Positions 3,911-58,339 of a DNA stretch of 64,000 bases are shown here, in pieces. The first letter of the stretch is position 1, and the number at the start of each line of letters is the position of its first letter. The notes beneath the pieces are model-generated. The model searched no databases, had not been told where the DNA came from, and saw only the letters and a list, made by a program, of their open reading frames with translations. This stretch comes from Trueperaceae bacterium (GTDB lineage: Bacteria > Deinococcota > Deinococci > Deinococcales > Trueperaceae): contig OZ243927.1 of assembly GCA_965213925.1 (NCBI GenBank), positions 2,368,001 through 2,432,000 of the forward strand, read 5' to 3'. A program made the translations under genes and the position numbers.

Positions 3911-4120
3911 AGGTTTACTATACCCAACTGTTTTGATGGTCATCTAAGCAAGGCTTTCTCGGTCGGTTGGGAGTCGGACGAGTCTTGTCTAAGTATGAAG
4001 CGTATGACTCGAATGAACGTTGAAGCATTTGGAGGTTCGAGGCTAGCAAACATCAAAAGAACAGGAGGTCGCGGTGGGCGCGACCTCCTGTTCCGGTTCA
4101 GAAATTTGGAGCTACGACGC

Positions 4121-10727: not shown

Positions 10728-11789
10728 TCAGAAAGCTAGGTCGATGTCCCCTGTCACTTCCACAAAATCTAGAACGACCTGCGCCAGTTCTTCCCCTTTG
10801 TCCTCTTGCAAGAAGTGTCCTCCGCCCTGGATCGTCGTGTGCGGCTGCCCTTGCGCGCCCGGCACGCGGCGCTGAAAGACGCGCTCGCCGCCGCGCATGA
10901 TGGGGTCGCCGTCGCTAAACGCGGTTAGGAAGGGCTTGTCGAAGCGCTCCAGCGCCGCCCACGCGCGGCGGTTTGCACTCGTAGCGGGGTTGTCTGGGCT
11001 TGTAGGCACGAGCGTCGGGAAGATGCGCGCCCCCGCTTTGTACGCCTCGCTGGGGAAGGGTGCGTTATACGCTTTGATGACCTCTCGGCTCAACTCGGTC
11101 TTCGTCCCCGCTTGGACGATCTGACCGACGGGCAAAACGGGCAGCGCTTGCGAAGCGAAAACCCACGCTCTGAACACATCCGGTAGCGTTTCGTCGCCAG
11201 TCGGGAGTGCGCCGTTGGCGAGCACGACTCGGGCGAAGCGTTCAGGGTGCGCCGCCACGAGCCGCAGCCCGGTGAGTGAGCCCCAGTCTTGGCACACCAG
11301 CGTGATGTCCCTCAGGTCTAGCTTTTGCACCCAGGTCCACAGCCAGTCCACGTGCTGCTGATAGCTGTACGCCCCCTGTTCCGCGAGCTTATCCGACTTG
11401 CCGAAGCCGATGAGGTCGGGCGCGAGCGCGCGGAGACCCGCCGCCGAAAAGCGCGGAATCATCTTCCGGTAAAGGTAGCTCCAGGAGGGTTCGCCGTGGA
11501 GCATCAAGATGACGGGTGCGTCACGTGCGCCTTCGTCGACGTAGTGCATCCGCAAGCTGTCAACGTGGATGTAATGCGGCGCGAAGGGATAGCCGGATAG
11601 ACCCTCAAAGCGTGCTTCGGGCGTTCTCAAAACCTCGCTCCCGCGCCAGTAGCCGACCACGCTGCGCCTGCGCCGACGCCGCAGCGCGACGCCGAGACCC
11701 GCGGCGGCTCCGAGCCAGAGTAGCTTCTTTACAGATTGCTTCACCGTTTCATCCCTCCAAGGCTCACTCGACACTTCATACATGGTCAT
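10728..11789 (-). CDS. haloalkane dehalogenase with N-terminal hydrophobic/poly-Arg extension
   Basis: LHGEPSWSYLYRKM, CQDWG (Asp nucleophile + Trp) and GHFLQED motifs; start uncertain. Confidence 0.88.
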   Translation of the reverse strand: MTMYEVSSEPWRDETVKQSVKKLLWLGAAAGLGVALRRRRRRSVVGYWRGSEVLRTPEARFEGLSGYPFAPHYIHVDSLRMHYVDEGARDAPVILMLHGEPSWSYLYRKMIPRFSAAGLRALAPDLIGFGKSDKLAEQGAYSYQQHVDWLWTWVQKLDLRDITLVCQDWGSLTGLRLVAAHPERFARVVLANGALPTGDETLPDVFRAWVFASQALPVLPVGQIVQAGTKTELSREVIKAYNAPFPSEAYKAGARIFPTLVPTSPDNPATSANRRAWAALERFDKPFLTAFSDGDPIMRGGERVFQRRVPGAQGQPHTTIQGGGHFLQEDKGEELAQVVLDFVEVTGDIDLAF

Positions 11790-11957
11790 AGCTACGTGCG
11801 GCTAGCCTAGCACATGCGTGTTTGGTGCGCGGTGTTCAAACTTCGATGTTTACGCGTTTAGCCTGTCAACCGTTTGACGGTTCTTTGTCCCATGATTGTT
11901 TCATAGTGATGAATCTCGAGGTATCCACACAAGGTAGCGTAACGGTAGAGATGGCGC

Positions 11958-12058
11958 TACACACTTTCCGGGTTATTCCCAAACGAGTAGAAAAGACGGA
12001 TTCTGGTAGTGGCAGCAGCGCTGCAAGCGTTTATGCAGCGGTCAATCGGAATCCGTAT
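11958..12058. repeat. MITE family B (Deinococcus-type small repeat), degenerate copy
   Basis: TTTCCGGGTTATTCC...TTTATGCAGCGGTCAATCGGAATCCGTAT, similar to 13537-13798 and 62871-62916. Confidence 0.6.
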
Positions 12059-12137
12059 TACGGCGTTCTACCGAGTTTGGGGACAGACTCGAGCGAGCGA
12101 TGGACCTTGCCTAAGGGCACTTCACATGGAGGACGAC

Positions 12138-13523
12138 ATGGCAGAGCATTTTGACGCAATCGTTATTGGCGCGGGGCAGGGCGGCGGACCCCTCGCGGGC
12201 GCGCTTTCACAAGCGGGGCACAAGGTGGCGCTCGTGGAGAAAGAGCACGTGGGCGGCACCTGCGTGAACGAAGGCTGCACGCCGACAAAGACGATGGTGG
12301 CGAGCGCGAGGGTGGCGCACGTCGCGCGGCGAGCGGCGCATTACGGCGTACATGTGGGCTCGGGTGACGTGTCTGTCGACATGAAGCGGGTTCGTGAGCG
12401 TAAAAACGAAGTCGTCACGATGTTTCGCGAAGGGAGCGAGAAGGGCGTTCGGAGCAAAGAGAACCTAGAGCTGCTCATGGGCACAGCGAAGTTTTCAGGC
12501 GAGAAGACAGTCGAGGTCGCGCTGAATGACGGCGGTACTAGAGAGCTAAGCGCCGACACCGTCGTCATCAACGCGGGGCAGCGCCCGAACATCCCGCCGA
12601 TTGACGGCTTGGATAGCGTCCCTTACCTGACCTCAACCTCGGTGATGGAGCTTGACGCGGTGCCTGAGCACCTGCTCGTCTTGGGCGGCGGCTACATCGG
12701 CTTGGAGTTCGCGCATATGTACCGCCGCTTCGGGGCGGAGGTGACGGTGGTGCAGAGAAACAGCCAGCTCTTGCCGAGGGAGGATAGAGACGTCGCCGAC
12801 ACCGTCGCCGATATTCTCCGGGACGACGGCGTCACCGTGTTGCTGAGTAGCGAGGCGCAGCGTGTGTCGGACGAGGGCGGCGTCTCGCTCACCGTGGAGG
12901 GTGAAGAGGGCGAACAGTTTCTGCGCGGCTCGCACCTCTTAGTAGCGACGGGGCGCAAGTCGAACAGCGACACGCTGAATCTGGAGGCGACAGGCGTCAA
13001 GGTGGACAAACGCGGTAACATCGAGGTGAACGGAAGCCTGGAAACCAACGTCCCCGGCATCTACGCTATCGGCGACATCAAAGGTGGTCCCGCGTTTACC
13101 CACATTTCGTATGATGACTACCGCATCCTCAAAGATAATCTCTTGAATAACGCGAAAAGGACGATTGACGGGCGCATCGTTCCCTACACCGTCTTCATGG
13201 ACCCGCAACTCGGTCACGTGGGGCTCAACGAGAAGGACGCGAGAGAGGCAGGCTATGACGTCAAAGTTGCCAAAATGCCCCTCTCCTACGCCGCGAGAGC
13301 CATCGAAATCGACGAGACGCGCGGGCTGATGAAAGCGGTTGTGGACGCCGACACCGACCAGATTTTAGGCGCGACGATGCTGAGTTTCGACGGCGGCGAA
13401 GTGGTGACCATTATCCAAACAGCGATGCTCGGCGGGGTGCCCTATCAGGTGCTGCGCGACAGCCCCTTCTCCCACCCGACCTTGGCAGAGTCGCTCAACA
13501 ACCTATTTTCGTCGTTCGAGTAA
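12138..13523 (+). CDS. class I pyridine nucleotide-disulfide oxidoreductase (RclA/'mercuric reductase'-like)
   Basis: GAGQGG, GGTCVNEGCTPTK redox pair, GGGYIG, HPTLAE; no C-terminal Cys-Cys, so not a true MerA. Confidence 0.9.
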   Translation: MAEHFDAIVIGAGQGGGPLAGALSQAGHKVALVEKEHVGGTCVNEGCTPTKTMVASARVAHVARRAAHYGVHVGSGDVSVDMKRVRERKNEVVTMFREGSEKGVRSKENLELLMGTAKFSGEKTVEVALNDGGTRELSADTVVINAGQRPNIPPIDGLDSVPYLTSTSVMELDAVPEHLLVLGGGYIGLEFAHMYRRFGAEVTVVQRNSQLLPREDRDVADTVADILRDDGVTVLLSSEAQRVSDEGGVSLTVEGEEGEQFLRGSHLLVATGRKSNSDTLNLEATGVKVDKRGNIEVNGSLETNVPGIYAIGDIKGGPAFTHISYDDYRILKDNLLNNAKRTIDGRIVPYTVFMDPQLGHVGLNEKDAREAGYDVKVAKMPLSYAARAIEIDETRGLMKAVVDADTDQILGATMLSFDGGEVVTIIQTAMLGGVPYQVLRDSPFSHPTLAESLNNLFSSFE

Positions 13524-23042: not shown

Positions 23043-24099
23043 ATGGACGAACAACGAAAACGCAGTTTAGACACCACCCTATCCCAGATCGAGAAACAGT
23101 TCGGCAAGGGCGCGGTCATGCGCTTGGGCGACGAGGGGAGCTTGACTTCCCAGGGCGTCATCTCGACGGGCTCAATGTCGGTAGACCTAGCCCTAGGCGT
23201 AGGGGGCGTGCCTAGAGGCAGGATCATCGAAGTGTACGGACCCGAGTCGGGCGGTAAAACGACGCTGTCACTACACATCGTTGCCGAAGCGCAAAAGCAA
23301 GGCGGCGTGGCTGCTTTCGTCGACGCCGAACACGCCTTGGACCCTTCTTACGCCAAAGCCCTAGGCGTCGATACCGACGAACTCTTAGTCTCGCAACCCG
23401 ATACCGGCGAACAAGCTTTAGAGATTACCGAACTCCTGGTGCGGAGCGGCGCGGTGGACGTGATCGTGGTGGACTCGGTGGCTGCTCTGGTTCCCAGAGC
23501 CGAGATCGAAGGGGAGATGGGCGACTCGCACGTGGGACTGCAAGCGAGACTGATGAGCCAAGCGTTGCGCAAACTCACGGGCGTCCTCTCGTAAAAGCCA
23601 CACCACAGCGATTTTCATCAACCAGATCAGGGAGAAGATAGGCGTCTTGTACGGCAACCCGGAGACCACCCCTGGGGGACGCGCCTTGAAGTTCTACTCC
23701 TCGGTCCGGATGGAAGTGCGGCGTAAAGGGGACGTCAAGAGTGGCGTGGATAAAGTCGGCAACCGCACGAGGGTCAAAGTCACCAAGAACAAGGTCGCGC
23801 CACCCTTTAAGGAGGCGGAGGTGGAGATCATGTTCGGGCGGGGCATCGACAAGCTAGGCGACCTGATCAACATCGCCTCGGACCTAGACGTGGTGCAGAA
23901 GTCGGGCTCGTTCTATAAGTACGAGGGCGCGACCATCGGGCAGGGCAAGGAGAAAGCGTCGACCTACCTAGAGGAGCATCCCGAGCTGATCGAGGAGATT
24001 AGGGGCAAAGTGACTGCTGCGATTCAGGGTGTGCCCTATGAGCCTAAGTTTAGCGGGGATGACCCTGATGATAGTAGCGGGGAGGCTGATGAGGAATGA
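23043..24099 (+). CDS. recA: recombinase RecA, split by one extra T at ~23592 (probable sequencing error)
   Basis: GPESGGKT Walker A, VDSVAAL, then [30 protein letters not shown] in the shifted frame; deleting T23592 restores [13 protein letters not shown]. Confidence 0.95.
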
Positions 24100-25766
24100 A
24101 CGCCCTCCTATTCATCTTCGCGCTGCTCTTGGGCGGGGCGATAGGGGGGACTGTCGGCTTTCTGGTGCGCCAGCGCCGCGACGAAGAGGTCACGGCGAAA
24201 GCGCAGGAGGACGCGGCTGAGCTTAGGCGCAGCGCACAGGAGGAAGCGGAGCGCATCGTCGCGGGGGCGCAAGCGGAGCGGCGTGACCTCATCGGGGCGG
24301 AGCGCGAGCGTTTAGAGGCTGAGGCGACTCGGGCGAGGAACATGTTAGAAGCCGACCTCGAGCGGCTTCGCCAGGTCGCCCAAGACGACCTCTCGAGGGG
24401 TCGCGCTGCTCTGGAAGAGGAGCGCGCCACCGTGCGCGAGTTGCGCGACGAGGTCAAACGCGACCGCGAGCGTGTGGACGCTTCCGAAGAGCGCTTGAAT
24501 CGGCGCGGCGAGCAGCAGGACGCCCGCGCCCTCCGTTTGGACGACCAAGAGGAGCGCTTAGACGAACGTGAAGCGGAGTTGAAAGCTAGGGCGAACGACC
24601 TAGACGCCCAACGCGCCGAGGTCGAGCGCCAACTTTACGAAGTTGCGCAACTCAGCCGCGAGCAGGCGTCTGAGATTATCCTAAACCGTTTAGACGGGGA
24701 GTTGGAGCGCGAAAAAGCCACGCGCATCCGCGCCGAACTCGACAAAGCCGACGCCGAAGCGAAGCGCAAGAGCACGAACATCATCGCGCAAGCGATCCAG
24801 CGGAGCGCCAGCGAAGTTTCTGCCGCGATTAGCGTCTCCGTCGTGCCCATCCCGAGCGACAACATGAAAGGGCGCATCATCGGGCGCGAAGGGCGCAACA
24901 TCCGCGCCTTCGAAGCCCTGACGGGCGTGGACCTCATCATCGACGACACACCCGAAGCCGTTCTCCTAAGCTCCTTTAACCCCATCCGCCGCGAGGTCGC
25001 CAAGCTCGCCCTGACCGAACTCGTCGCGGACGGGCGCATCCACCCCGCACGCATCGAGGAGATGGTCCAAAAGGCGCAGACCGAGATGCAGTCTTACATC
25101 CGCGAGCGCGGCGACGAAGCCGCCCTAGAAGCCAACATCGTCGGCATCAAACCGGGGATGCTGCAACTCTTGGGTCGGATGCACTTTCGCACCTCGTACG
25201 GGCAGAACGTCCTCATCCACTCCGTGCAGGTCGCGTACTTAACGGGCATCATCGCCGCTGAAATCGGCTTGGACGAAAACCTAGCGCGGCGAGCCGGGCT
25301 CTTACACGATATCGGCAAGTCCATCGACCGCGAAATCGAAGGAACCCACACCGAAATCGGCGCGAACTTAGGGCGGCGCTTCGGCGAGTCTCGAGAGGTC
25401 ATCGACGCGATTGCCCACCACCACGACTTAGAACTCTCCGAAACGCTCTACCCGGTCATCGTCTCCGCCGCCGACGCCATCAGCGCGGCGCGTCCGGGTG
25501 CACGCCGTGAGACGTTGGAGACCTACCTCAAGCGTTTAGAGGGCTTAGAGAGCATCGCCACGAGTTTTCCCGGCGTCGAAAAGTCCTACGCCATCCAAGC
25601 CGGGCGCGAAATCCGCATCATCGTCGAGCCCGAAAAGGTGGACGACGCCTCCGCCGTTCTGCTCGCCAGAGACGTGGCGAACCGCATCGAGCAGGACATG
25701 GAGTATCCGGGGCAGGTGCAAGTCACGGTGGTGAGGGAGTCCAGGGCGGTGCAGTACGCGAGGTAG
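24096..25766 (+). CDS. rny: ribonuclease Y
   Basis: N-terminal TM, coiled coil, KH domain ([13 protein letters not shown]), HD domain (LLHDIGK). Confidence 0.96.
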
Positions 25767-30958: not shown

Positions 30959-31921
30959 CTACCGTTTGCCCACTAATAAGGTATAAAGCACCGCCATCCG
31001 AATCGGCACGCCGTTCGCCACCTGCGTCTCAATCACACTGCGCTCCGAATCCGCCAGCGTCCCCGCGAGTTCCACATCGCGGTTCATCGGTCCAGGGTGC
31101 ATGATGAGGGCGTCGGGGTGAGCATGTCTCATGACCTCTTCGGTGACTTGATAGCGCGTTTGGTATTCGGCTAGAGAGGGAAGAAGCCCTGTGTTCATCC
31201 GCTCCATCTGTAAACGCAACGCCATCACCCCATGTGCGCCTTCGGCGGCATCGTGAGTACTGTTCGTTAGGGTGACGTTGTATTGCTCTAACTCCTTCGG
31301 TAGCAGCGTCCTCGGTCCACAAAGGGTGACTTCTGCGCCCAGCTTCGTCCAGAGTTCGATGTTGGAACGGGCGACTCTCGAGTGCATCACATCCCCAATA
31401 ATCGCCAGCTTCTTCCCTTCAAACCCATCAAAACCGCTGAACTCCTTCGAAAAGGTGTAGGCATCTAAAAGCGCCTGCGTCGGGTGGGCGCGGCGTCCGT
31501 CACCCGCGTTCACAATCGCAGCGTCCGTCCACTTGGTGAGTTGATAGGGCACGCCCGCCGCCCTGTGCCGCACCACGTAGAGGTCGGCTTGCATAGCGTC
31601 CACGGTCTTGAGCGTATCTTTTAAGGATTCGCCTTTGCTGAGGCTCGAGCCCCCTGCCGCAAAGCTCATCACGTCCGCCGACTGCGCCCGCGCCGAGCGC
31701 TCAAAGGAGAGCCGCGTGCGCGTCGAAGGCTCGAAGAAGAGCGTCCCTACCGTAAAGCCTTGCAGCGCCGGCACCTTTTTGATCGTGCGCGTCATGACCT
31801 GCGCCATCACGTCTGCCGTGTTGAAGAGCGCCGTGACCTCTTCGGCGCTCCAGTCCTGCAGATCGAGCAGGTGCCGCTTTTTTGCCTTTGCCGCTTCGGG
31901 TATTTGCACGGTCTGAATCAT
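30959..31921 (-). CDS. pyrB: aspartate carbamoyltransferase catalytic subunit
   Basis: [20 protein letters not shown] and HPGPMNR motifs. Confidence 0.97.
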
Positions 31922-32475
31922 GCGAGTTCCATGAGGTCCACGCCCTCTTCGCCGTCTACAGACTCGAGCTTCACCTTCACCACTTCCTGCTTGCTCGTCG
32001 GTACGTTCTTACCCACGTAGTCTGCCCGAATCGGCAACTCCCTGTGCCCTCTATCCACCAACACCGCATACTGAATGACCGAAGGACGCCCCATATCGAT
32101 GAGCGCGTCTAATGCCGCCCTTGCCGTCCGCCCCGTATAGAGCACGTCGTCACAGAGCACCACGCGCACGCCGTGAACGTCGAAGGGGACTTCCGTGCGT
32201 TTCACCACGGGTTGCAGGGCAATTTCGGAGAGGTCGTCGCGGTAGAGCGTAATGTCGAGCTTGCCGAGCATAGGCTTCGTGCCCTCGAAGCTCTCGATGA
32301 GCCCCGCGAGATGCTCCGCAATCGGCACGCCTCTCGTGTGGATGCCCACCAGCGCCAAGTTCTCCGCGCCCTTATTGCTCTCCACGATTTCGTGGGCGAT
32401 GCGCGTGAGGGCGCGGTTGATTTCTGCTGTGGTCATGAGGGTGGCTTTGTGGGTCATGTTGGCGCTTGCGCTCAT
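31918..32475 (-). CDS. pyrR: pyrimidine operon regulator/UPRTase PyrR
   Basis: [43 protein letters not shown]. Confidence 0.97.
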
Positions 32476-32483
32476 GAGGGGCC

Positions 32484-32582
32484 AAAAAAAAGCGCCGTTA
32501 GCGCGGCGTGAAAGGGCTTGATTGTGTGGTTGACCTCTTGCATGGTTGGTTCCTTTCCGGTCTCGCGGGACCGAGTTAAAGG
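32484..32582 (-). promoter_or_regulatory. PyrR-binding attenuator leader (binding loop plus terminator)
   Basis: Minus strand CCTTTAACTCGGTCCCGCGAGACCGGAAAGG resembles the PyrR binding-loop consensus; then hairpin CGCCG..CGGCG + T8 just before pyrR. Confidence 0.8.
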
Positions 32583-32663
32583 GTGTTGGGAGAGTGTACT
32601 ACTCTTAATACAGCAAGGTCAATGGTAAACCAAAGCTCTTATTATGATGTTACGATTAGCAAG

Positions 32664-33305
32664 ATGAGTTTGGAAACACAAAAATACTTGAGGATATTCG
32701 TGCCTGGGGTTCTAATTTTACTTTTAGGAACTCCTCTTTTTTTAGAAAGCTTCGGTATAACCGATGTAAAATCCTTCCTTAGTTTTGAAAACGCTCTACT
32801 AGTTCCGTTAGCAGTTGTTTTGGGCGTCTTTTACCACGTTTCTAGTGTAAGAAGCTTCGTTAAACAGATATTTACTCAAAAGACAGATAAGAAAATAGTT
32901 GATAGATTGCTCTCAGTATCTGACGAATCTATTGAAGTAAGAAACGTAGCAAAATGGTGTAACGGTAAAACTGCTAACAGTATTTTTTACAATATCGTTG
33001 ATAATGACTCAAGTCTTTCGGAAAAGGTCAAGATAATACGTTTCAACGGAGTAATATGGACTTCATTTATTGACGCATCTACAATATGCTTCCTTTTCTC
33101 AGGTGTCTATCTAGGAAGCTATCAATTTGTCGAACGGTCTCACTTTATCACTCTTGCATTAGTGCTTTGGATAGCGAGCATCGTTTGCTTTCTTCTAATT
33201 TTCCCTACAGTCAATCGACATTTAGAGCTACAAGATGAGCAGATTGACGCCCTAATCGCAAATAAAAAGTCTGAGCTACTATCCAAGCTTCACGAGAACT
33301 TATGA
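32664..33305 (+). CDS. uncharacterised 4-TM membrane protein (213 aa), AT-rich
   Basis: TACGAT 7 nt before ATG 32664; four hydrophobic segments around a ~70-aa soluble loop. Confidence 0.75.
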   Translation: MSLETQKYLRIFVPGVLILLLGTPLFLESFGITDVKSFLSFENALLVPLAVVLGVFYHVSSVRSFVKQIFTQKTDKKIVDRLLSVSDESIEVRNVAKWCNGKTANSIFYNIVDNDSSLSEKVKIIRFNGVIWTSFIDASTICFLFSGVYLGSYQFVERSHFITLALVLWIASIVCFLLIFPTVNRHLELQDEQIDALIANKKSELLSKLHENL

Positions 33306-33327
33306 AGAAAAATAGCCTCTACACACT

Positions 33328-34368
33328 GTGATTTATGCTCTTCATGAAAAAACTATTCTTTTGATTCAAAAAGAGTATGTTGGCTCTTCTAACCCTTGGT
33401 ATTTAGGGTTCAGTGGAGGTAAAGATTCTTCTGCGCTGCTAAAGCTCGTTTTCACTGCTCTGCGAGAATTACCGGAAGTCTATAAACCGATAACCCTTAT
33501 CTACGTAGATACAGGCGTAGAAATCCCGCTTATTCGTGACCTTGTTATTGAAACTGTAAATGGCGTTCTGGAAGAGTCTGCGACTCATAATATTCCTGTG
33601 AAAGTAGAAATCGCAACACCAAAGCTTGAAGACCGCTTTTTCGTCAAGGTCATAGGAAGAGGTTATCCGCCTCCGACTAATAAATTTAGGTGGTGTACGG
33701 ATAGGCTACGTATTAACCCTGTTAAGAGAGTTTTAGATTCGGTCAAGGAAAAGCAAAGTCTTATACTGCTGGGCATAAGACACGGCGAAAGTAAGGAGCG
33801 AGACAGGACAATAGAGCGCCACAAGCAAGACAAAGAGTTTTATTTTCGGCAGGCGAACAACCGAAATACGCTTATATTCAGCCCTATTGTTGAGTATAGT
33901 ACGAAAGATATCTGGACAACGCTTGCACTTCTTACTGAGCCTGTTAGCTTAAATGCTATACGCTTGTTTGAACTTTATACAGAGGCTAGTGGTGAGTGTC
34001 CGACAGTTCGTGATCCGAAAGGTACTCCATGCGGAAAAGGAAGATTCGGGTGCTGGACGTGTACGGTAGTGCGAAAAGACCGTGCAGTTACGAGTATGGT
34101 GAAAGAGGGGCATCATAGCCTAGCCCCTTTGCTCGAATTTCGAAATTGGCTAGCCGAAATTAGAGATTTGCCTCAGTACCGATGTAAGGTGCGGCGTAAT
34201 GGACAACGCGGTCTAGGTCCGCTGACCCTCGCTGCTAGAAAAGAGACTCTTGCTAAACTACTTCACGCACAAATCGTTAGCCGCTACAAGCTAATAGATG
34301 GGGAAGAACTTTTGCTAATCGAAGAGCTTTGGAAGAAAGATGTAAACTCGACATCTTATCGTGAGTAA
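33328..34368 (+). CDS. stand-alone DndC-like PAPS-reductase-family protein
   Basis: PP-loop FSGGKDSS, DTGVEIP, FFVKVIGRGYPPP..KFRWCTDRL, GECP, CGKGRFGCWTCTVV; start uncertain. Confidence 0.85.
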   Translation: MIYALHEKTILLIQKEYVGSSNPWYLGFSGGKDSSALLKLVFTALRELPEVYKPITLIYVDTGVEIPLIRDLVIETVNGVLEESATHNIPVKVEIATPKLEDRFFVKVIGRGYPPPTNKFRWCTDRLRINPVKRVLDSVKEKQSLILLGIRHGESKERDRTIERHKQDKEFYFRQANNRNTLIFSPIVEYSTKDIWTTLALLTEPVSLNAIRLFELYTEASGECPTVRDPKGTPCGKGRFGCWTCTVVRKDRAVTSMVKEGHHSLAPLLEFRNWLAEIRDLPQYRCKVRRNGQRGLGPLTLAARKETLAKLLHAQIVSRYKLIDGEELLLIEELWKKDVNSTSYRE

Positions 34369-34378
34369 TGCGAAAAGT

Positions 34379-34687
34379 ATGATTGCGCTTCTCAACCAAA
34401 ACCGCCCCGCCCTCGAGCACCTCTGCCGCCAATTCTTCGTAGAGCGCCTAGAGGTTTTCGGCTCTGCCACAACGACCTCTTTTGACCTCGAGCACAGCGA
34501 CCTAGACTTTTTGGTGCGCTTTCAGCAGCCTGCCCCCATAAACCTCTCCGACCAGTATTTCGGACTCGCAGAAGGATTAGAGGCGCTCTTTGGTCGTAAG
34601 ATTGACTTAGTGATGGAGGGGGCGCTTAAAAATCCTTACTTTATCGAGAGCGTGAATGAGACGAGAGAACTACTCTATGCAGCGTAG
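34379..34687 (+). CDS. minimal nucleotidyltransferase (MntA-type antitoxin)
   Basis: VFGS......D...SDLDFLV, LFGRKIDLV....LKNPYF. Confidence 0.9.
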   Translation: MIALLNQNRPALEHLCRQFFVERLEVFGSATTTSFDLEHSDLDFLVRFQQPAPINLSDQYFGLAEGLEALFGRKIDLVMEGALKNPYFIESVNETRELLYAA

Positions 34688-35016
34688 AACGCTCAAAATG
34701 TTAGAGGACATCAGAGATGCGGCGGCGTTTATTCTTGAGCAAACGAGGAATGTGTCCCTAACGGACTTATAGACAAGACCGCCTTTTGCGTCAAGCTGTC
34801 GAGCGTAACTTTGAAATCATCGGTGAGGCGATTCGCCGTTTGCGAGACCATGACCCCAAGGTGGCGAACAAAATAGGCGAATCGGGGCGTATCATCTCAT
34901 TTCGCAACACGCTTATTCACGGCTACGATTTGATAGATGACGCTCTGGTGTGGGATGTGGTGGAGAATAAACTTCCTGTACTACTTCATGAGGTCGAAGC
35001 GTTGATGCAAAGTTAA
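34677..35016 (+). pseudogene. HEPN (DUF86/HepT-type) ribonuclease toxin with a +1 frameshift at ~34767
   Basis: MQRRTLKMLEDIRDAA... then AVERNFEIIGEA and RNTLIHGY (Rx4HxY) in the next frame; removing one T joins them. Confidence 0.8.
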
Positions 35017-35767
35017 GAGACTAACGTTTTGAAGTTGTCACCGCGCTTCTCAACCAGAACTGCCCCGCCCTCGAGCCTCATTCTACAAAGCCAGCCAAGT
35101 ACATCCGTAGAAACCAGATAGACTGAACCTCATGAGGTTTACCGAAGCAGAACTTCGCGCAGCAGGGCTGTCAGAAGAGGAAATCGGGGCTATAAAAAGG
35201 CAGCATCTAGGCGGCACATCTGGCGGTGAAGGGCTTCGCTACGAAGAGGAATACGCGGTTTATCGGCTCATCACTGCTATGTTTGACTATATTGAGCAAG
35301 GCAGAGATTTTGGCGTTCTTCTTCAGGATATGTGTCCGGTTGATGACGTAGTGATTGACGCGGAGACTCGAGAATACTGCCAACTCAAGACGGGAGCTGC
35401 GGAAACGTGGGGCGCGAACTCCAGCAAATTAGAGAGGCAATTCAAGCTGCAAAAGAGGCTTTGCGAGGCTAGAGGTGACTCAGCATTTCTACTAAGGTTG
35501 GTCACGCCGCATGAGGAGCGCTACAAGAGCTTCAACGAAAACTTGCCCGCAGAGCTTAAACGCTGCACGGAAATAACGCTTTTTAGGCAGTTGGGGGGGC
35601 GCAGGGAGATGTGGTCCGAAACGAGTCCTTGCTACGAAGAACTCCGCGAACTCTGCGCGTATGAACCGGACAGCCCTTCGCACCGAGAGGTCGTCGTGGC
35701 GCTTTTCTATGACCGGCTTCAAGCAACGTCGCCCGGCGAATGGTATCTGAGCGCGATTTCTGACTAT

Positions 35768-35998
35768 TACACTGTCAACTAAGTATTGCTACCTCTTGTA
35801 TGTCACCCTGAGCCGAAGGCGTAAGGGTCTCGTTTGGTTACTGCCAAAACTTTGTAACTCGCATCTCGGCTGGTTGGGAATGAAAGACGAGATTCTTTCA
35901 TCGTTCATCCCCGAAAGGGGGCTCCACGGAGCCTGTCCTGAGCTTGCCGAAGGGTTGCGTTCAAAATGACATCACTCATTTTTTACTTGACGGTGTAC
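35768..35998. mobile_element. MITE family A, copy 2, inserted in the nuclease gene
   Basis: TIRs TACACTGTCAACTAAG / TTTACTTGACGGTGTAC, TAT on both flanks. Confidence 0.8.
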
Positions 35999-36145
35999 TA
36001 TCTCAAAAGCAATGAAGATTTAGCCTTCGCTGTTCCGATGGTACTTAGCGACGTTGAGCCTCCGCCTCGGTGGGAAGAAGCCGTCGCAACTGCTGAGCGC
36101 ATTTCGGGCTTGACGCTACACATCAATGGTGATTTCTGCTACTAT

Positions 36146-36260
36146 TAGCAGGTATCATCTGGTTTGAGACACTCTCACTCTAAAAAACAGCGTCTAGCAC
36201 ACACGTTATGAGATGATACCTGCGGCATTCTCTCTCAGTATGTTGCGGAACTGCTACTAT
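36146..36260. mobile_element. 115-bp insertion (MITE or IS remnant) in the nuclease gene
   Basis: CTGCTACTAT repeated at 36136-36145 and 36251-36260; internal 13-bp IR GCAGGTATCATCT/AGATGATACCTGC. Confidence 0.65.
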
Positions 36261-36394
36261 AGTTACATTTACAATTCGGGCGCTTTTGATAGCGGAGCCA
36301 TCGGAAGAGTAGGGAGTGACAGGCTTCACAGGTTTTTGGACAGAATCGTGAATACTAAACCTGGTGTTATAGATGAGTTTTGGGAGCAACTGCT

Positions 36395-36922
36395 ATGAAC
36401 AGAACTATATCTGAGATGGTCACACCTAGAGCGGAAGATAGCCTCAACGAACTCTTGAACGCCAAGGGCGACGTACCCCACTATCAAAAAGCGATGACAG
36501 CGCTCGGTCAGGAGTTGGGGAGGCACATCTCGAGCCAACTCTTAGAAACCTCTTCTGTTTGTTTAGTATTCACCGTAGAAGATGCCGACTTCTTGGCGCG
36601 TGGTCTCTTAAAAAGCATCTCAGGAGTAGTTGACGCGGATAATATTCATGTTGTTTGCTTTTGGAACAAGCGTGAGCAATTGGGCGGCGTGAGCGTCGCT
36701 CCTATCATTCGCCGCTACATCGAGCCCTTTGACAAGGTGGACGCCGTCATCGTGCTCAAGTCAATCATCTCGAGTTCATGCGTTGTCAGAACGAATCTGA
36801 TGGAGATATTAAGCAAAGCGGAGCCAGAAAGGGTCTTCGTTACGGCTCCAGTTATGTTTGTAGGTTCTACTAAAATGTTGGAGCAAGAGTTTTCGGCGGA
36901 TATCGCTTCGAAGTTTGAGTAA
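36395..36922 (+). pseudogene. UPRTase/PRTase-fold protein, 3'-truncated by IS982
   Basis: ATGA overlap with the nuclease stop; N-terminal helix YQKAMTALGQELG and degenerate PRPP-loop-like VIVLKSIISSSC; stop codon supplied by the IS end. Confidence 0.55.
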
Positions 36923-37916
36923 CCTAAGTTCGGAGTTTCCAAATAGCATAAGCATCTCCTAGAATGAGGGTGTTGAAGGCTCAAAAAAGGAGATGCTTAG
37001 GATGAGTTTACTAGAATTGTTCTGCGAGGTGGATGACTTCTGCAGAGGCTTCGCGCTCTGGGCACATAAACAGCAGCTTGCTGAGAGTAGAAAGCGTGGT
37101 CCTAAGTGCCGCTTGAGCGTAAGCGAAGTGATGACGATCATGATTCACTTTCACAGTTCAGGCTACCGAGACTTCAAGAGCCACTACCAGAAACACGTGT
37201 GCAAGCAGCTTAAAGGTGAGTTTCCAGCACTGGTATCGTACTCGCGCTTTGTAGAACTGACCTCAGAGGTTTTGCTGCCGCTTTGCGCCTATCTGCGAGC
37301 GAGTATAGGTGAAGTAACAGGTATCAGCTTTGTAGATAGCACGCATGTGGCAGTGCGCCACAACAAACGTATTGAACGCAACAAGGTCTTTGCAGGCTTA
37401 GCAGCGCGTGGCTGTACCGGCATGGGTTGGTTCTATGGTTTCGAGCTGCATCTCATCATCAACGATAAGGGTGAACTGCTCGCCGTCTATCTAACGCCTG
37501 GCGATACGGATGATCGCAAGCCGCTCGGTGTACTTACGCAAAACCTGTTCGGTAAGCTTTTCGGTGACAAGGGTTATCTCTCACAAGACCTCTTCGAAAA
37601 GTTCTTTGAGCAAGGCATAGAACTCATCACGACCATCCGCAAGAACATGAAAAGCGCGCTGAAGCTTGAGGACAAGATTCTCCTGCGCAAGCGGTTCATC
37701 ACCGTTCGTCCAGCTTGACTGGATCGAAACGGTGAACGATCAGCTCAAGAATATCTCGCAGATTGAGCACACCAGACACCGAAAGCCTGCTAACTTTGCT
37801 GTCAATCTCATCGCTGGACTCATCGCCTATCAGCACCAGCCCAAGAAGCCTTCGCTGAATCTGGGAGCTGACATTGACCCTCTCCCTGTCCTGATTTGAC
37901 TTCGAACTTAGGTTAC
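36919..37916 (+). mobile_element. IS982-family insertion sequence (copy 1)
   Basis: 14-bp TIRs GTAACCTAAGTTCG / CGAACTTAGGTTAC; near-identical left end at 63679; no target duplication. Confidence 0.9.
36993..37899 (+). pseudogene. IS982 transposase frameshifted by a 22-bp insertion (37701-37722)
   Basis: [43 protein letters not shown] split by ACCGTTCGTCCAGCTTGACTGG. Confidence 0.85.
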
Positions 37917-37937
37917 ATAATGATAGGCGCCTTACTT

Positions 37938-38820
37938 ACGCCAATTCGGAAAAGATTTGACAGCGGGAGAAGTGAGGGTTGCAATGATGTATGCGCAAAA
38001 TCCCAACCCTCGAAGAGATTATACAAGCCGTCGAACGTTTACCCCTCAAGAAGCGTAGAAAAGCCCCTCAAGGACGTGCTCCTGTTTTTCCAGACTCGTT
38101 CATCATCGCCTTAGCGGTCTATCAGAAGCTGTCGAGTTTTCGCTATAGCCGGAAGATGCTTGAAGTTGCTGCATCGTTCGGCGTGGACGTACCTGTACCC
38201 TCAACGTTTTGTGAGCGTAAGCGCCTCCTGATAGGACAGATTATTCTCGCGGTTAAACAGCTTTGCACCGGGCATAACACGACGAAACAGCACCTCGACT
38301 CGAAGAAACTAGAAGTAGTAGATTTTGCCCGTGCTAAAAGGACCAAGCTTGCGGGCAGTTATGGGCGTGACCACGTCCATAACACCACCTTCTATGGCTT
38401 TCGGCTTCATGCGCGTGTGGACGATACAGGCAGACTCTGTGAGGTACTGCTGCGAGGCGCGAACGAACATGATGTTAAGGTCGCGCCTCGCCTACTAGAC
38501 AAACTCACTTACGCCATTGTAACCGCCGATAAAGGCTATATCAGCTCCGAGCTTAAAGCCGACGTTGCCTCCCAAGCGGTTGACCTTATAACCCCGCGCC
38601 GCAGCAACCAGCTACCCCCGCCCAAGCGTGAGCAGAGGCTTTACCAAGGACACCGCATCGTTGAGTCGGTCTTCTCGTCCTTGGATAGACTTGGACTCTC
38701 TGACAGACCCTACCGCTCGACGGTGGGCTGCATCCTGCACGTTTACACCACCTTGCTCGCTTACCAACTCAGCCGTTTAGGGGCATTTGAGCTTTGAATT
38801 TCCCTTTTCCGAATTGGGGT
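37938..38820 (+). mobile_element. second, distinct IS982-like insertion sequence
   Basis: 17-bp TIRs ACGCCAATTCGGAAAAG / CTTTTCCGAATTGGGGT (1 mismatch); TTACTT duplicated at 37932-37937 and 38821-38826. Confidence 0.88.
37991..38797 (+). CDS. DDE transposase (IS982-like), intact
   Basis: HLDS, FYGFRLH, NEHD, ADKGY and RIVESVFS motifs. Confidence 0.88.
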   Translation: MRKIPTLEEIIQAVERLPLKKRRKAPQGRAPVFPDSFIIALAVYQKLSSFRYSRKMLEVAASFGVDVPVPSTFCERKRLLIGQIILAVKQLCTGHNTTKQHLDSKKLEVVDFARAKRTKLAGSYGRDHVHNTTFYGFRLHARVDDTGRLCEVLLRGANEHDVKVAPRLLDKLTYAIVTADKGYISSELKADVASQAVDLITPRRSNQLPPPKREQRLYQGHRIVESVFSSLDRLGLSDRPYRSTVGCILHVYTTLLAYQLSRLGAFEL

Positions 38821-38920
38821 TTACTTTATTATATTCACAAAGCCTTAACTATGAAGCGAGCAGCAGACCCTTGAGGACAGCGTAGCTTCAGCTTTAGGGG
38901 GCTGCAAGAAAGGAGAAGAC

Positions 38921-39085
38921 GTGAGCGACGCAGAACTCCGAAAATTGCATCAGCATTTGCGTAAGGCGTCACAGAAAACGGCGGGGCTTAGTGTAAAGAC
39001 GTTCCCGGAGATGATGACGATGCTCGCGCTGCGGCGCGAACTGAGCCGCGCGCTCAGCGTTGTTGAGCGGAGCATGAAAGATTGA
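38921..39085 (+). CDS. small hypothetical protein (54 aa), below the ORF-track cutoff
   Basis: AAGGAG RBS, GTG start, MSDAELRKLHQHLRKASQKTAGLSVKTFPEMMTMLALRRELSRALSVVERSMKD. Confidence 0.5.
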   Translation: MSDAELRKLHQHLRKASQKTAGLSVKTFPEMMTMLALRRELSRALSVVERSMKD

Positions 39086-39207
39086 CGCGCTGGCGTTCGT
39101 GAGAGGGCTCGATATTTCGAATCTTTACACAGTGGTCGCCTCGCGCGGTGACGCCCTTCAGTTTTTCTGGTGTAAATAAATGGTGCCGAGGCGCTGACGA
39201 GCCACTT

Positions 39208-39393
39208 TCACTTAGGCTTGTTGTCCGTTTCTTTAGGCTTATTGCCCCGGCGAAACATGTAGAACGTCGCGCCTACGCCCCCTAGCAAGCTGAGCCCCAA
39301 GCTCCAGAAAAGGGGCGTGCCGAAAGCGAGAAGGCCGATAAAGAGGAGCGCCGTTGCGCCGATTCCCCAAAGCATCGCGTCTTCAAAATCCAT
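39208..39393 (-). CDS. small two-TM membrane protein
   Basis: Two hydrophobic segments and a basic tail. Confidence 0.65.
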   Translation of the reverse strand: MDFEDAMLWGIGATALLFIGLLAFGTPLFWSLGLSLLGGVGATFYMFRRGNKPKETDNKPK

Positions 39394-39600
39394 AGTTCCA
39401 TGCTGCTAGGAAAAGAGAGGCGTTGCAAGTGAAGGTACTACATTTATGAAGACATAGTTTATGAAGACATACGGACCCCACTTCACTCCCTATCACTGAG
39501 AGAAGGCCTCGACGACGTAATTCGATTTTGCAAGACGGCGAGTAACCGAGCACGCTACAAGATATTGACATTCCTGTGTTAAGAAGCTCACTATAGGGGT

Positions 39601-40392
39601 ATGAATCAGCGTCAGATTGACCTTGCCCTGCTCGCCGGAATCGGCGTTCTGCTCGTCGCCATCCTCGTGCTCGCCTTGAGCGCCGCGCCTATGCGGGGCG
39701 GCTCGGCGGAAGACCCGCCTAACGCGGAGCAGACATCGAACGACGCCGCGAATCCTTCTGGAAATCCGGCGGAAAACCAAGCGGAGCAAGGGGAAGCCGC
39801 GCAGAATCAGCCCTCGGAAGAGGTGAGCGCCGTGGACGTGACGCCCGAGGAAACGAGCGCCGCTGAGGGTGTGTCCGTAGAGAACGCGGAGGACGACGCG
39901 GCGCAAACGGCTGAAGGCGACGCTGCCGAGAGCGCCGCACCCTCGGAGGGAGAAGGAGGGGGCGAAGCGGACGCCGAGGGTGCGTCAGATGCAGAGGCGA
40001 ATACCGCGGATACTGAGGCGGGCACGGAGGGCGCGCAAGCGGGCGAAGAGGCGGCGGCTCCCGTAGAGGGGGCGCAAGCTACCCCGACTGGAGCGGTCAA
40101 CTTGAGCCGCGTCGGTTTCGCGTTCATCACCGCCGAGTCGGGCGCGTGCAGCATCCCCTTACAGCCCTGGCGTCAGGTCGCAGTGAGCCGCGACCTCTTG
40201 GCACAGTACGGCTGCGGCGCGACGGTCACGCTCGACTTAGCTGACACCGTCAACGGCACACAGCAAGTTACCGCGCAGATCGCCGACACGATGAACCCGA
40301 GTTTCGAACGCACCGTGAATATCTTTGTTGGGGAGGAGGAGCCGGCGCTCGAGTACGGCATCACTACCGGCACCCTGCAAGGTGGGCCATAA
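39601..40392 (+). CDS. membrane-anchored protein with acidic linker and C-terminal 3D/DPBB-like domain
   Basis: N-terminal TM, E/A-rich linker, VAVSRDLL...IADTMNP motif; TTGACA upstream. Confidence 0.7.
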   Translation: MNQRQIDLALLAGIGVLLVAILVLALSAAPMRGGSAEDPPNAEQTSNDAANPSGNPAENQAEQGEAAQNQPSEEVSAVDVTPEETSAAEGVSVENAEDDAAQTAEGDAAESAAPSEGEGGGEADAEGASDAEANTADTEAGTEGAQAGEEAAAPVEGAQATPTGAVNLSRVGFAFITAESGACSIPLQPWRQVAVSRDLLAQYGCGATVTLDLADTVNGTQQVTAQIADTMNPSFERTVNIFVGEEEPALEYGITTGTLQGGP

Positions 40393-40498
40393 GTTGAACC
40401 TCCACGTGTTTATGTACGAGTAGCTTTACGAAAGTTGAGAGGACTGAGGTAAAAGTTTTCTCTTAGTCCTCAGTCCTTTCCTCTTGTATTCTGTTCCT

Positions 40499-40828
40499 AT
40501 GCGCCGCTTCACCGCTCAAGGAACCAACACGGGCTTCGCCTGCGTCCACTGCGGCCGCGACGTGCCGCCCCTCGCGAACGGCTCGTACCGCAACCACTGC
40601 CCGCACTGCCTCTACTCGCTTCACGTCGACGTTTTCCCCGGCGACAGGGCGAGCGACTGCGGCGGCGTGTTGGAGCCCGTGAGCGTGGATTACAGCGGCA
40701 AAAAAGGCTGGGTCATCGTTCACCACTGCCAGACGTGCGGCGAGGTGCGGCGCAACAAAGCCGCGCTCGGTGACGCGGCAATGCCCGACGATTACGACGT
40801 GATTTTGGAGCTTAGTCAGCGAGCTTAG
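40499..40828 (+). CDS. RNHCP domain protein
   Basis: CVHCG, YRNHCPHCLYSLHVD..PGDRA. Confidence 0.9.
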   Translation: MRRFTAQGTNTGFACVHCGRDVPPLANGSYRNHCPHCLYSLHVDVFPGDRASDCGGVLEPVSVDYSGKKGWVIVHHCQTCGEVRRNKAALGDAAMPDDYDVILELSQRA

Positions 40829-56548: not shown

Positions 56549-58339
56549 TCAGTTGCTCGTGAGGGCGTCTCGAGCCGCTCTACTGCCGGTCTGTACCCTC
56601 CACAGTCCCGCGTAAATTCCGCTACGCTCCAACAACGTTTCGTGCTGACCCGCCTCCGCCAACTGCCCATGTTCCAACACATAAATTTTGTCCGCGTTGC
56701 GAATTGTCGAGAGTCTATGCGCAATAAGGATGACGGTGCGGTTCTCCGAAATCGTCTCTAGCGAGCGCTGGATCGCCGCCTCGGTCTCGTTGTCCACCGC
56801 TGAAGTTGCCTCGTCCAGAATCAGAATCGGCGGGTCCTTAAGTACCGCCCTCGCGATCGAGATGCGCTGACGCTGCCCGCCCGAGAGTTTCTGCCCTCGT
56901 TCGCCTACAACCGTGTCGTAACCGTTCGGTAAACCCTGGATGAAGTCGTGCGCTTCAGCAATCTTGGCAGCTTGAATTACATGCTTTTCGTCCGCGTCCA
57001 AGTCACCGTAGACGATGTTTTCCCAGACCGTCCCGTGAAACAAGAAAACATCTTGGCTGACGAAGCCGATAGCTCCGCGTAGGCTTCGCATTCGCAAATC
57101 GCGCAAATCTACGCCGTCTAGCGTGACGCGCCCTGCGGTGGGGTCATAAAAGCGCAACAGCAGTTTGATGAGCGTGCTCTTGCCCGCGCCCGTCGCGCCA
57201 ACAATCGCAGTGGTCTCGCCTTCACGCATGGTCAGGGAGAGGTTGTTGAGGACGTTGGGGCCATCCTTGTAAGCAAAGCTGACCTCTTCTAAGCGAATCT
57301 CGCCGCGCACGTTTGCCAGAACTTTAGAACCGTCAGTCATACTCGAGTCCGTATCGAGCAGATTCAAAATCCGCCTCGTGGACGCCATCGCCCGCTGGTA
57401 AAGGTCCAAAGTTTGCCCGAGCCGCGTGAGGGGCCACAGAAGCCGCTGGGTCATGAAGACGAGCACGCTGTAGACGCCCACCGCCATCGCCCCGCTCGTC
57501 GTCAGGTAGCCGCCATATACAAGCGTTGCAATAAAGCCCATCACGATCGCCATGCGAATAACCGGCACGAAGAGCGAGCTGAGCCGAATCGCTTTCTTGT
57601 TGCTCTCGCGGTACTCATCACTGCCCGCTTCAACCCTTTTAGCTTCGAACGCCTCCGCTGCAAAGCTCTTGATGGTCGCGATGCCGCTCAGGTTATTCGC
57701 AAGCTGCGAGTTGAGGAGCCCGACCCTTTCTCTCACCTCCGCGTAGCGCGGCGCGATGCGCTTTTGAAAGCGGAGCGAGCCCCAGATAATCACGGGCATC
57801 GGCAAAAAGGCGAGCCACGCCACCCCCGGAGCCGCCGCGAAGAAGATCGCGCCGATGATGAGGACTGTTGTGACAAGCTGCACGATGTCGTTTGCGCCCA
57901 CATCTAAAAAGCGCTCCAACTGGTTGATGTCGTCGTTCAACACAGATAAAAGCCCACCCGTCGAGCGGTCCTCGAAGTACGCTAGCTCCAAGTTCTGCAC
58001 GTGGTCGTAGGTCTCTACCCGCAGTTCATGCTGTAAAGTCTGCGCGAGGTTGCGCCACAGCACCTCCGCGATGTAGTCCGTCACCGACTCCAAACCCCAC
58101 ACTAAGAGGGTGATCGCCGCCAACACCCAAAGCTGCGTCATCACGTCTGTGAGCCCGAACCGCGCCAAAAAGGAGTCTTGCTGCTGCACCACCGTGTCCA
58201 CCGCTACCCCGATGAGGAGAGGCGGCGTGAGGTCGAAGGCTTTGTTTCCGACTGAAGCGATAATGGACCAGACCAGGTAGGCGCGGTGGTTGCGGGCGTA
58301 GTGCCAGAGGCGCGTAAGGGGATGAGCGGAGTCCGGCAT
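56549..58339 (-). CDS. ABC exporter, fused TMD and ATPase
   Basis: [23 protein letters not shown]. Confidence 0.95.

Follow-up and report, generated by a model that had tools for sequence, protein, structure and literature searches.

Background and locus

DndC is a PP-loop ATP pyrophosphatase that carries a 4Fe-4S centre on three cysteines together with a cysteine dyad (excerpts of PMC10853773), and the minimal machinery for phosphorothioation is described as a PAPS-reductase-domain enzyme that is combined with a P-loop nucleoside triphosphatase (NTPase) (excerpts of PMC12914056 and PMC10853773). Here we describe a short relative of DndC that is encoded together with a membrane protein. The pair was found in a stretch of 64,000 nucleotides (nt) from a Trueperaceae bacterium (assembly GCA_965213925.1, contig OZ243927.1, positions 2,368,001 to 2,432,000 of the forward strand), and this whole stretch is called the window throughout. 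The locus comprises the following features, given in window coordinates:

32664..33305, + strand: gene for a membrane protein of 213 amino acids (aa); open reading frame (ORF) with its start set by an alignment with nine homologues

33306..33327, + strand: intergenic spacer of 22 nt between the two genes

33328..34368, + strand: gene for a short enzyme of the DndC clade, 346 aa, with a GTG start; ORF with profile matches

For the membrane protein, the longest mechanically called ORF begins with a GTG at 32583 and encodes 240 aa. The ATG at 32664, which gives a protein of 213 aa, was taken as the start because all homologues in a 10-sequence alignment begin at this position or at most two residues away from it.

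An earlier note on this DNA, made from the letters alone, had described an AT-rich two-gene unit whose second gene, of about 346 aa, carries DndC-type motifs, and had seen no dndA, dndB, dndD, dndE or ssp gene in the window. All of this was recovered. Both ORFs lie on the plus strand, and GC content is 0.411 across the pair and 0.407 in 33001-34000, compared with 0.586 to the left and 0.590 to the right of the pair. The translation of the second gene contains SGGKDS, IGRGYPPP..FRWCTDRL, GECP and RFGCWTCTVV, and no component of the Dnd, Ssp or BREX systems apart from the DndC-like protein itself was detected by PADLOC among 63 ORFs of the window.

Conservation of the gene pair

Genomes were scanned with an alignment of 28 homologues of the enzyme; 486 relatives were confirmed, of which the best 80 were kept as loci. 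In the loci whose DndC is closest to the window enzyme (L001-L008 and L035; 41-55% identity), the gene immediately upstream, in the same orientation, encodes the membrane partner in nine cases out of nine. These partner ORFs encode 211-227 aa and begin with the same N-terminal signature (for L005, 222 aa after its over-long start was cut back). The gap between the partner ORF and the start of the longest DndC ORF ranged from -4 to -83 nt; this abutting or overlapping arrangement in all nine loci indicates one transcription unit.

When all ORFs of the 80 loci were searched with a hidden Markov model (HMM) of the partner, matches were obtained in exactly the same nine loci and in none of the 71 others. 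An HMM of the DndD/PbeC-type ATPase behaved in the opposite manner, as it matched in 62 of the 71 other DndC loci (a set that includes two in which DndC runs off the contig) and in 0/9 paired loci. PADLOC was applied to eight of the 71 and reported either DndB/C/D/E/A sets or DndC together with PbeC-type ATPases and DndE-HerA-like fusions. Among the 79 neighbouring ORFs of the nine paired loci, neither PADLOC nor Pfam detected DndB, DndD, DndE, SspB, SspC or Brx proteins, and no third gene is shared across these loci.

The pairing of the enzyme with the membrane protein is far beyond chance. What had been noticed in one genome as an unknown membrane neighbour is a conserved and dedicated partner, and the pair is conserved without dndD and dndE in its surroundings.

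The enzyme is a short relative of DndC

The enzyme matched the DndC model of PADLOC with an E-value of 3.5e-92, over profile positions 15-375 of 481 only. It reached 282.7 bits against TIGR03183, the NCBI equivalog model for DndC, which is just below the cut-off of 290.4, and 311.3 bits against NF005316, which is below the cut-off of 536. The Pfam model PAPS_reduct was matched at 6.2e-12. Matches to the PADLOC models of SspD (1.3e-10, residues 26-176) and BrxP (2.6e-13) were confined to the N-terminal PP-loop domain of the enzyme. In both its curated score and its architecture, which is not full-length, the enzyme falls short of DndC proper.

In a maximum-likelihood tree of 106 DndC proteins, the ten partnered enzymes and 27 close database homologues were split from 69 canonical DndCs with an SH-aLRT support (Shimodaira-Hasegawa-like approximate likelihood ratio test) of 100; the tree is unrooted and comes from a quick search, for which the program warns of long-branch joins. 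Conservation of single residues was read from an alignment of these 37 clade members with the 69 canonical DndCs. The SGGKDS motif, at residues 29-34 of the window enzyme, is kept in 100% of the clade members and in 99% of the canonical proteins, and C123, C224, C235, C242 and C245 fall in columns that are 100% Cys in the canonical DndCs. Nearly all other conserved columns of the canonical proteins are retained by the enzyme, those in residues 260-340 included, and canonical DndCs run a median of 80 residues past its C-terminus. Substitutions specific to the clade are S35 for T, F105 for W, K107 for N, and R128, a position that is K in 69 of 69 canonical sequences.

The AlphaFold2 model of the enzyme has a pLDDT (predicted local distance difference test) of 85.2 and is poorly defined only in the Cys-rich loop 222-241. 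Its closest folds, as found with Foldseek, are CysH/APS reductases and the [4Fe-4S] tRNA thiolases NcsA/TtuA; no solved structure of a DndC was found by sequence. At E<=0.001 the enzyme has 4252 homologues; the top 120 of them (the enzyme's own 100% entry excluded) all have a length of 323-378 aa and an identity of 51-64%. Judged from its residues, the enzyme is a catalytically intact relative of DndC and not a decayed fragment, which agrees with the earlier description of an orphan DndC-like enzyme with no dndD or dndE in the window.

The membrane partner belongs to an unannotated family

The partner had been described as a protein with four transmembrane (TM) helices. Kyte-Doolittle analysis revealed three strongly hydrophobic segments (9-27, 38-62 and 161-179). 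The proposed fourth segment, at about 129-152, is polar, remains under the hydropathy threshold of 1.6 and holds W132, T133, S134 and D137. In the AlphaFold2 model, which is wholly helical (pLDDT 93.2, predicted TM-score (pTM; here TM stands for template modelling) 0.87), the fourth segment pairs with the last one in a long helical hairpin. The predicted topology of four membrane helices is likely but not proven. Between helices 2 and 3 an insert of about 65 residues (62-128), also helical, contains 12 Lys/Arg and is therefore probably facing the cytoplasm. No known ligand-sensing domain was detected in this insert, although an unrecognised one may be present.

A word-index search with the partner returned only the window protein itself, which was a failure of sensitivity, and the family was recovered by inspection of the neighbours of the enzyme and by HMM. 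A profile search of 1.84 billion representatives yielded 481 clusters at E<=0.001 and 428 at 1e-10. The best 150 profile matches were all 175-268 aa long; fused forms of 407-2000 aa were not found, which is weak evidence. In an alignment of 110 family members R10, P14, L118 and D137 are invariant, and Y57, R63, F108, Y109, D113, S117, N128, G129 and Q193 are conserved in at least 90%, whereas no cysteine is conserved. The conserved polar residues argue for a specific function over that of a generic hydrophobic anchor.

No match to the partner was found in Pfam, NCBIfam, PADLOC or PHROG, and PADLOC did not match any of its nine homologues either. Pfam searches with the 110 family members gave scattered matches to membrane proteins, with at most 5/110 for any family, and MotA_ExbB was absent from the 25 listed of the 76 families touched. 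A sequence-profile search of the PDB with the partner stayed at chance level (best E 0.26), Foldseek of the model against the PDB and BFVD returned nothing at E<=1e-3, and Atlas searches led to unnamed 'hypothetical protein' clusters or to nothing. A kinship with MotA/ExbB/PomA was considered, as these proteins stood in the top PDB rows, and was rejected at E-values of 0.4-1.2 (best 0.43) and TM-scores of 0.2-0.3 (0.29 at most). The partner is a member of an unannotated family without a known structural relative.

Co-inheritance and mobility of the pair

Over the ten pairs, the identity matrices of partner and enzyme were correlated with a Mantel r of 0.80, a value that was as high in 1 of 5000 permutations and that three closely similar pairs from Bacteroidota help to raise. 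The median identity across pairs is 27% for the partner and 44% for the enzyme, so that the partner is the faster-evolving of the two.

The flanks of the pair differ in each of the nine loci and consist mostly of metabolic or envelope genes; phage or plasmid genes around the pair were found in none of them. Where L003 and L004 were compared, DNA similarity starts 14 nt before the partner gene and stops within the last 30-60 nt of the DndC ORFs. GC content of the pair was below that of its flanks in ten out of ten cases, by 3 to 23 points. The nine loci belong to Bacteroidota (four), Alphaproteobacteria (two), Betaproteobacteria (one), Gammaproteobacteria (one) and Bdellovibrionota (one). Low GC, variable insertion sites and a sparse distribution fit an accessory cassette and not a conserved pathway, and a self-contained, horizontally mobile two-gene operon is the best explanation for the pair.

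Comparison with described systems

The closest described relative is the DndC of DndABCDE, with which the window enzyme shares 37-43% identity over residues 13-340 as well as SGGKDS and the five cysteines. It differs from this protein by the missing tail of about 80 residues, by scores under the curated cut-offs, by its own substitutions and by its position in a separate clade. On the level of the operon, DndD, DndE, DndB and DndA are absent and a membrane protein is found in their place.

A tail is likewise missing in the short DndCs of 376-390 aa that are encoded with PbeC/CxC-type ABC ATPases and DndE-HerA-like fusions (e.g., L027, L044 and L059). Unlike the window enzyme, these proteins group with the canonical DndCs in the tree and lack a membrane partner; an ATPase of about 690 aa is encoded after them. 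Tail-less DndC ORFs of this length on the canonical side were seen in eight loci altogether (L027, L038, L044, L048, L059, L060, L064 and L067). In most of these, the genes after dndC encode the ATPase of about 690 aa and another protein of some 510 aa; the arrangement of L027 differs, and a PbeC-type ATPase together with an SspH/DndH/mad8 HerA-like protein was confirmed by PADLOC in L044 and L059 only. The existence of a tail-less subgroup with other partners implies that loss of the tail has accompanied a change of partner more than once.

With SspD of SspABCD the enzyme has the PAPS-reductase/PP-loop domain in common, but the match is N-terminal only and neither SspB nor SspC is present in the window or the loci. 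The PP-loop domain is also shared with BrxP of BREX type 4, but BrxC, BrxZ and BrxL are not found nearby, and the DUF4007 domain that excerpts of PMC12914056 assign to BrxP is absent from the window enzyme. Orphan DndC-like PAPS reductases of phages (Tsatsa gp3, proteins of Pseudomonas and Rhizobium phages, PHROG 12882/424) are 25-38% identical to it and likewise occur without DndD or DndE; unlike the window enzyme, they have no membrane partner, as determined by tblastn against 50,697 phage records. In Tsatsa (L081, 1710-2669) the DndC-like gene is situated between a replication gene and hypothetical genes. IbrA/IbrB and the CysH-like proteins of type IV-B CRISPR systems, which were considered as further candidates, were dropped since no such model appeared among the profile matches.

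Two further groups of systems resemble the pair in layout. In Kiwa (KwaA/KwaB) and Zorya (ZorAB plus ZorC/D) a membrane sensor is coupled to a DNA-acting partner. The likeness is one of functional analogy only, namely of a multi-pass membrane protein with a cytoplasmic protein that is expected to act on DNA; there is no sequence relationship, and the window partner and its nine homologues have no PADLOC match. CBASS, Pycsar and Thoeris systems with transmembrane effectors combine an enzyme and a membrane protein in a two-gene layout. The layout of the window pair is alike, but its enzyme is of the PAPS-reductase/DndC type and not a CD-NTase, cyclase or TIR protein, and no nucleotide-sensing domain is detectable in its membrane protein.

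In PADLOC-DB v2.0.0 the two proteins do not match one catalogued system, as the enzyme matches DndC-type models only, and no system or family in PADLOC-DB v2, Pfam, NCBIfam or PHROGs covers the pair, which upholds its novelty with respect to these catalogues. A description of a DndC plus membrane-protein pair was not found in the literature searched (in the case of PMC10853773, excerpts of the main text). According to excerpts of PMC12914056, the neighbourhood survey reported there required a P-loop NTPase beside the DndC homologue, a rule that would have excluded the clade of the window enzyme. In a supplementary genome table of that paper, some related genera are given without an assigned phosphorothioation system, in a form that does not show whether the clade is among them. 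A pairing of a nucleoid protein with a PAPS reductase is mentioned in an excerpt of bioRxiv 10.64898/2026.04.06.716658 and concerns a different system. In the pair, a known enzyme family thus appears together with a new partner family, in a two-gene architecture that is both new and conserved. It lies outside the Dnd, Ssp and BREX type 4 systems as these are defined, and its residues suggest DndC-like chemistry.

Possible functions of the pair

We tentatively favor a reading in which the pair is a membrane-tethered DndC-type sulfurtransferase that acts on nucleic acid in a conflict role, and we regard this as possible rather than probable. The dedicated inner-membrane protein would take the place of the DndD ATPase and of the DNA-binding partner DndE. 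Because the PP-loop and the set of five cysteines are retained, the enzyme most likely keeps the chemistry of DndC, in which a phosphate is activated with ATP and sulfur is then inserted from an Fe-S/persulfide centre. Sulfur would be supplied by a housekeeping desulfurase of the IscS type. The partner may dock the enzyme at the cytoplasmic face of the membrane via its conserved, cytoplasm-facing polar patch and could thereby localise it or switch it on. The substrate would be nucleic acid near the membrane, e.g., entering foreign DNA or membrane-proximal self DNA, and the role of the module would be defence or self-marking rather than housekeeping.

Several points weigh against this reading. 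According to excerpts of PMC12914056, phosphorothioate dinucleotides were absent from isolates that carry a PAPS-reductase-domain gene and no cognate NTPase, and in the same excerpts the authors treat the NTPase as required; the result on these isolates speaks against phosphorothioation of DNA by a DndC that has no ATPase. Nucleic acid as the substrate is itself something we infer. The genomic context offers little in favor of a conflict role: recognised defence or toxin-antitoxin neighbours within about 8 kb occur only at the window and at one to two of the nine loci. According to PADLOC these are the MntA/HepT module with PDC-S09 in the window, the PDC-M66 pair in L004 and possibly an SNF2 helicase in L035, while the remaining paired loci have ordinary metabolic neighbours. 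An enrichment near defence genes, which the earlier note had named as a check of its idea, is thus weak. Furthermore, the loci in which the pair was examined in its genomic surroundings number nine only, drawn from the best 80 of 486 relatives.

In a more specific form of the favored reading the pair is an NTPase-free system of the phosphorothioation type, in which the membrane protein with its invariant intramembrane Asp would replace the scanning machinery of DndD/DndE, either by tethering the enzyme at the site of DNA entry or by coupling a signal from the envelope or an ion gradient, and in which it would act against or mark nucleic acid at the membrane. We consider this form unlikely.

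The pair could also function in abortive infection in the manner of CBASS, Pycsar or Thoeris. Here the DndC-like enzyme would sense infection and then either produce an adenylated or thiolated signal or modify its partner, upon which the partner would open as a suicide pore. The layout of an enzyme with a multi-pass membrane protein, the AT-rich mobile cassette and the patchy phyletic spread are in accordance with such a role, as are the sub-threshold matches of 5/110 members of the partner family to a holin model of Pfam and the toxin-antitoxin module that adjoins the window copy. However, the enzyme is outside the known signal-making families, and it keeps essentially the full residue set of DndC, including the C-terminal region (260-340) that is common to DNA-modifying DndCs, which leans against a small-molecule signal. 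The partner leans the same way, with strongly conserved polar residues of which some are invariant inside a membrane helix. Pore effectors of CBASS, Pycsar and Thoeris are poorly conserved, and invariant polar residues in a membrane helix are atypical for them. As the membrane protein moreover has no recognisable ligand-sensing domain and defence genes are few among the neighbours, a signal-gated pore appears improbable.

Equally, the substrate might not be a nucleic acid. The partner may present a membrane-bound phosphate (of a phospholipid, a polyprenyl phosphate or an envelope glycolipid) or handle sulfur, and the enzyme would thiolate or adenylate what is presented, in a role in envelope modification or metabolism. 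R10, Y57, R63, N128, G129, W132, T133 and D137 are located at the predicted cytoplasmic membrane interface and in the inner portion of the polar helix, where a lipid head group could bind. The neighbours of the pair, mostly metabolic and envelope genes and not defence genes, would suit this role, and the PAPS-reductase fold includes CysH, APS reductase and FAD synthase, which use substrates other than nucleic acids. Against it, the enzyme is far more similar in sequence to DndC (E 1e-92) than to metabolic PAPS-reductase families of any kind, the pair looks like an accessory cassette by its low GC, its changing insertion sites and its sparse occurrence, and the partner has no conserved cysteine that could relay sulfur. 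A membrane-bound substrate therefore seems doubtful to us.

There is only a slim chance that the enzyme, as an orphan DndC, cooperates in trans with Dnd, Pbe or Ssp proteins encoded elsewhere, or that it serves a mobile element in marking itself against phosphorothioate-dependent restriction by the host, with the membrane protein as an accessory: orphan DndC-like 'PAPS reductases' without DndD/E do occur in 17 phage records (e.g., Thermus phage Tsatsa, 36% identity), and excerpts of PMC13551039 state that a PAPS reductase of a phage can help in evading the Dnd system of the host, but an upstream partner in ten out of ten cases and a distinct clade do not fit a stray copy of an operonic dndC, the partner had no tblastn match in the phage and plasmid records searched, and the nine loci carry no phage or plasmid genes around the pair.

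Surroundings of the pair

On its left side the pair is abutted by the genes pyrR-pyrB-pyrC. At 32493-32508 on the minus strand, just upstream of the start of pyrR, a GC-rich hairpin is followed by a T-run; it resembles the attenuator of a pyr operon and had no Rfam family at E<=0.1. An Rfam scan of the region 31500-40500 returned nothing at this threshold, and the output of a promoter and terminator scan was near the expectation from shuffled sequence.

To the right, the stretch of lower GC extends to about 39 kb and contains the MntA/HepT module and two insertion sequence (IS) elements with DDE transposases. The gene for the MntA-type nucleotidyltransferase antitoxin (34361-34687; PADLOC PDC-S09, 3.2e-35) overlaps the DndC stop by 8 nt. 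The HepT toxin gene that follows mntA is split over two frames (34656-34772 and 34762-35016) and looks frameshifted. The module is flanked by a direct repeat of 34 nt that is 94% identical between its copies (34385-34418 and 35043-35076). As the first of them falls within the 5' end of mntA, the arrangement is suggestive of a leftover of a second copy or of a scar from recombination. In the other nine loci no MntA/HepT module adjoins the pair.

The two IS elements are adjacent (36919-37916 and 37938-38820), carry DDE_Tnp_1_3 transposase ORFs and have terminal inverted repeats of 18 nt and 17 nt that are 94% complementary. The transposase of the first is split in two ORFs (36993-37718 and 37666-37899), and no similar DNA was found in a plasmid collection. 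Two ORFs in the same low-GC island, 35132-35782 (216 aa) and 36380-36922 (180 aa), had no match in Pfam, PADLOC, NCBIfam or PHROGs and may be further accessory genes.

Elsewhere in the window, an ORF of 596 aa on the minus strand (56549-58339) matched the HerA/FtsK-like ATPase models mad3 (1.3e-34) and mad8 (7.6e-11) of PADLOC, which may reflect a housekeeping ATPase. An ORF of 556 aa on the plus strand (24096-25766) showed a weak match to the palm domain of Cas10 (4.6e-9, residues 400-511), for which a cyclase domain of the GGDEF type is more likely than a CRISPR protein.

Two of the related loci have neighbours of note. In L003 an IscS/DndA-like cysteine desulfurase (3971-5113; PADLOC DndA, 2.4e-124) is encoded 2.2 kb upstream of the pair, the only such case among the nine loci. 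It is separated from the pair by deacetylase and ferrochelatase genes and is probably a housekeeping enzyme. In L004 a HipA_2 kinase and a DUF3037 protein (11685-12843; PADLOC candidate PDC-M66A/B) are encoded 2.6 kb downstream of the cassette.

Significance

Surveys that are built on the NTPase rule screen out DndC homologues that have no NTPase gene beside them. A sizeable clade of DndC relatives, catalytically intact to judge by the conserved residues, carries no other annotation in databases than 'DndC' or 'PAPS reductase', and its recognition corrects a routine mis-annotation. Being a compact two-gene unit, the pair is easy to test. If it is true that the pair modifies nucleic acid, the chemistry of DndC can run without DndD and DndE; if it acts on another substrate or is an immune module, the known uses of the DndC enzyme family would be extended. 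Should the NTPase-free reading hold, the pair would constitute an immune or epigenetic module of two genes that has so far gone unrecognised and that is spread over four phyla or more.

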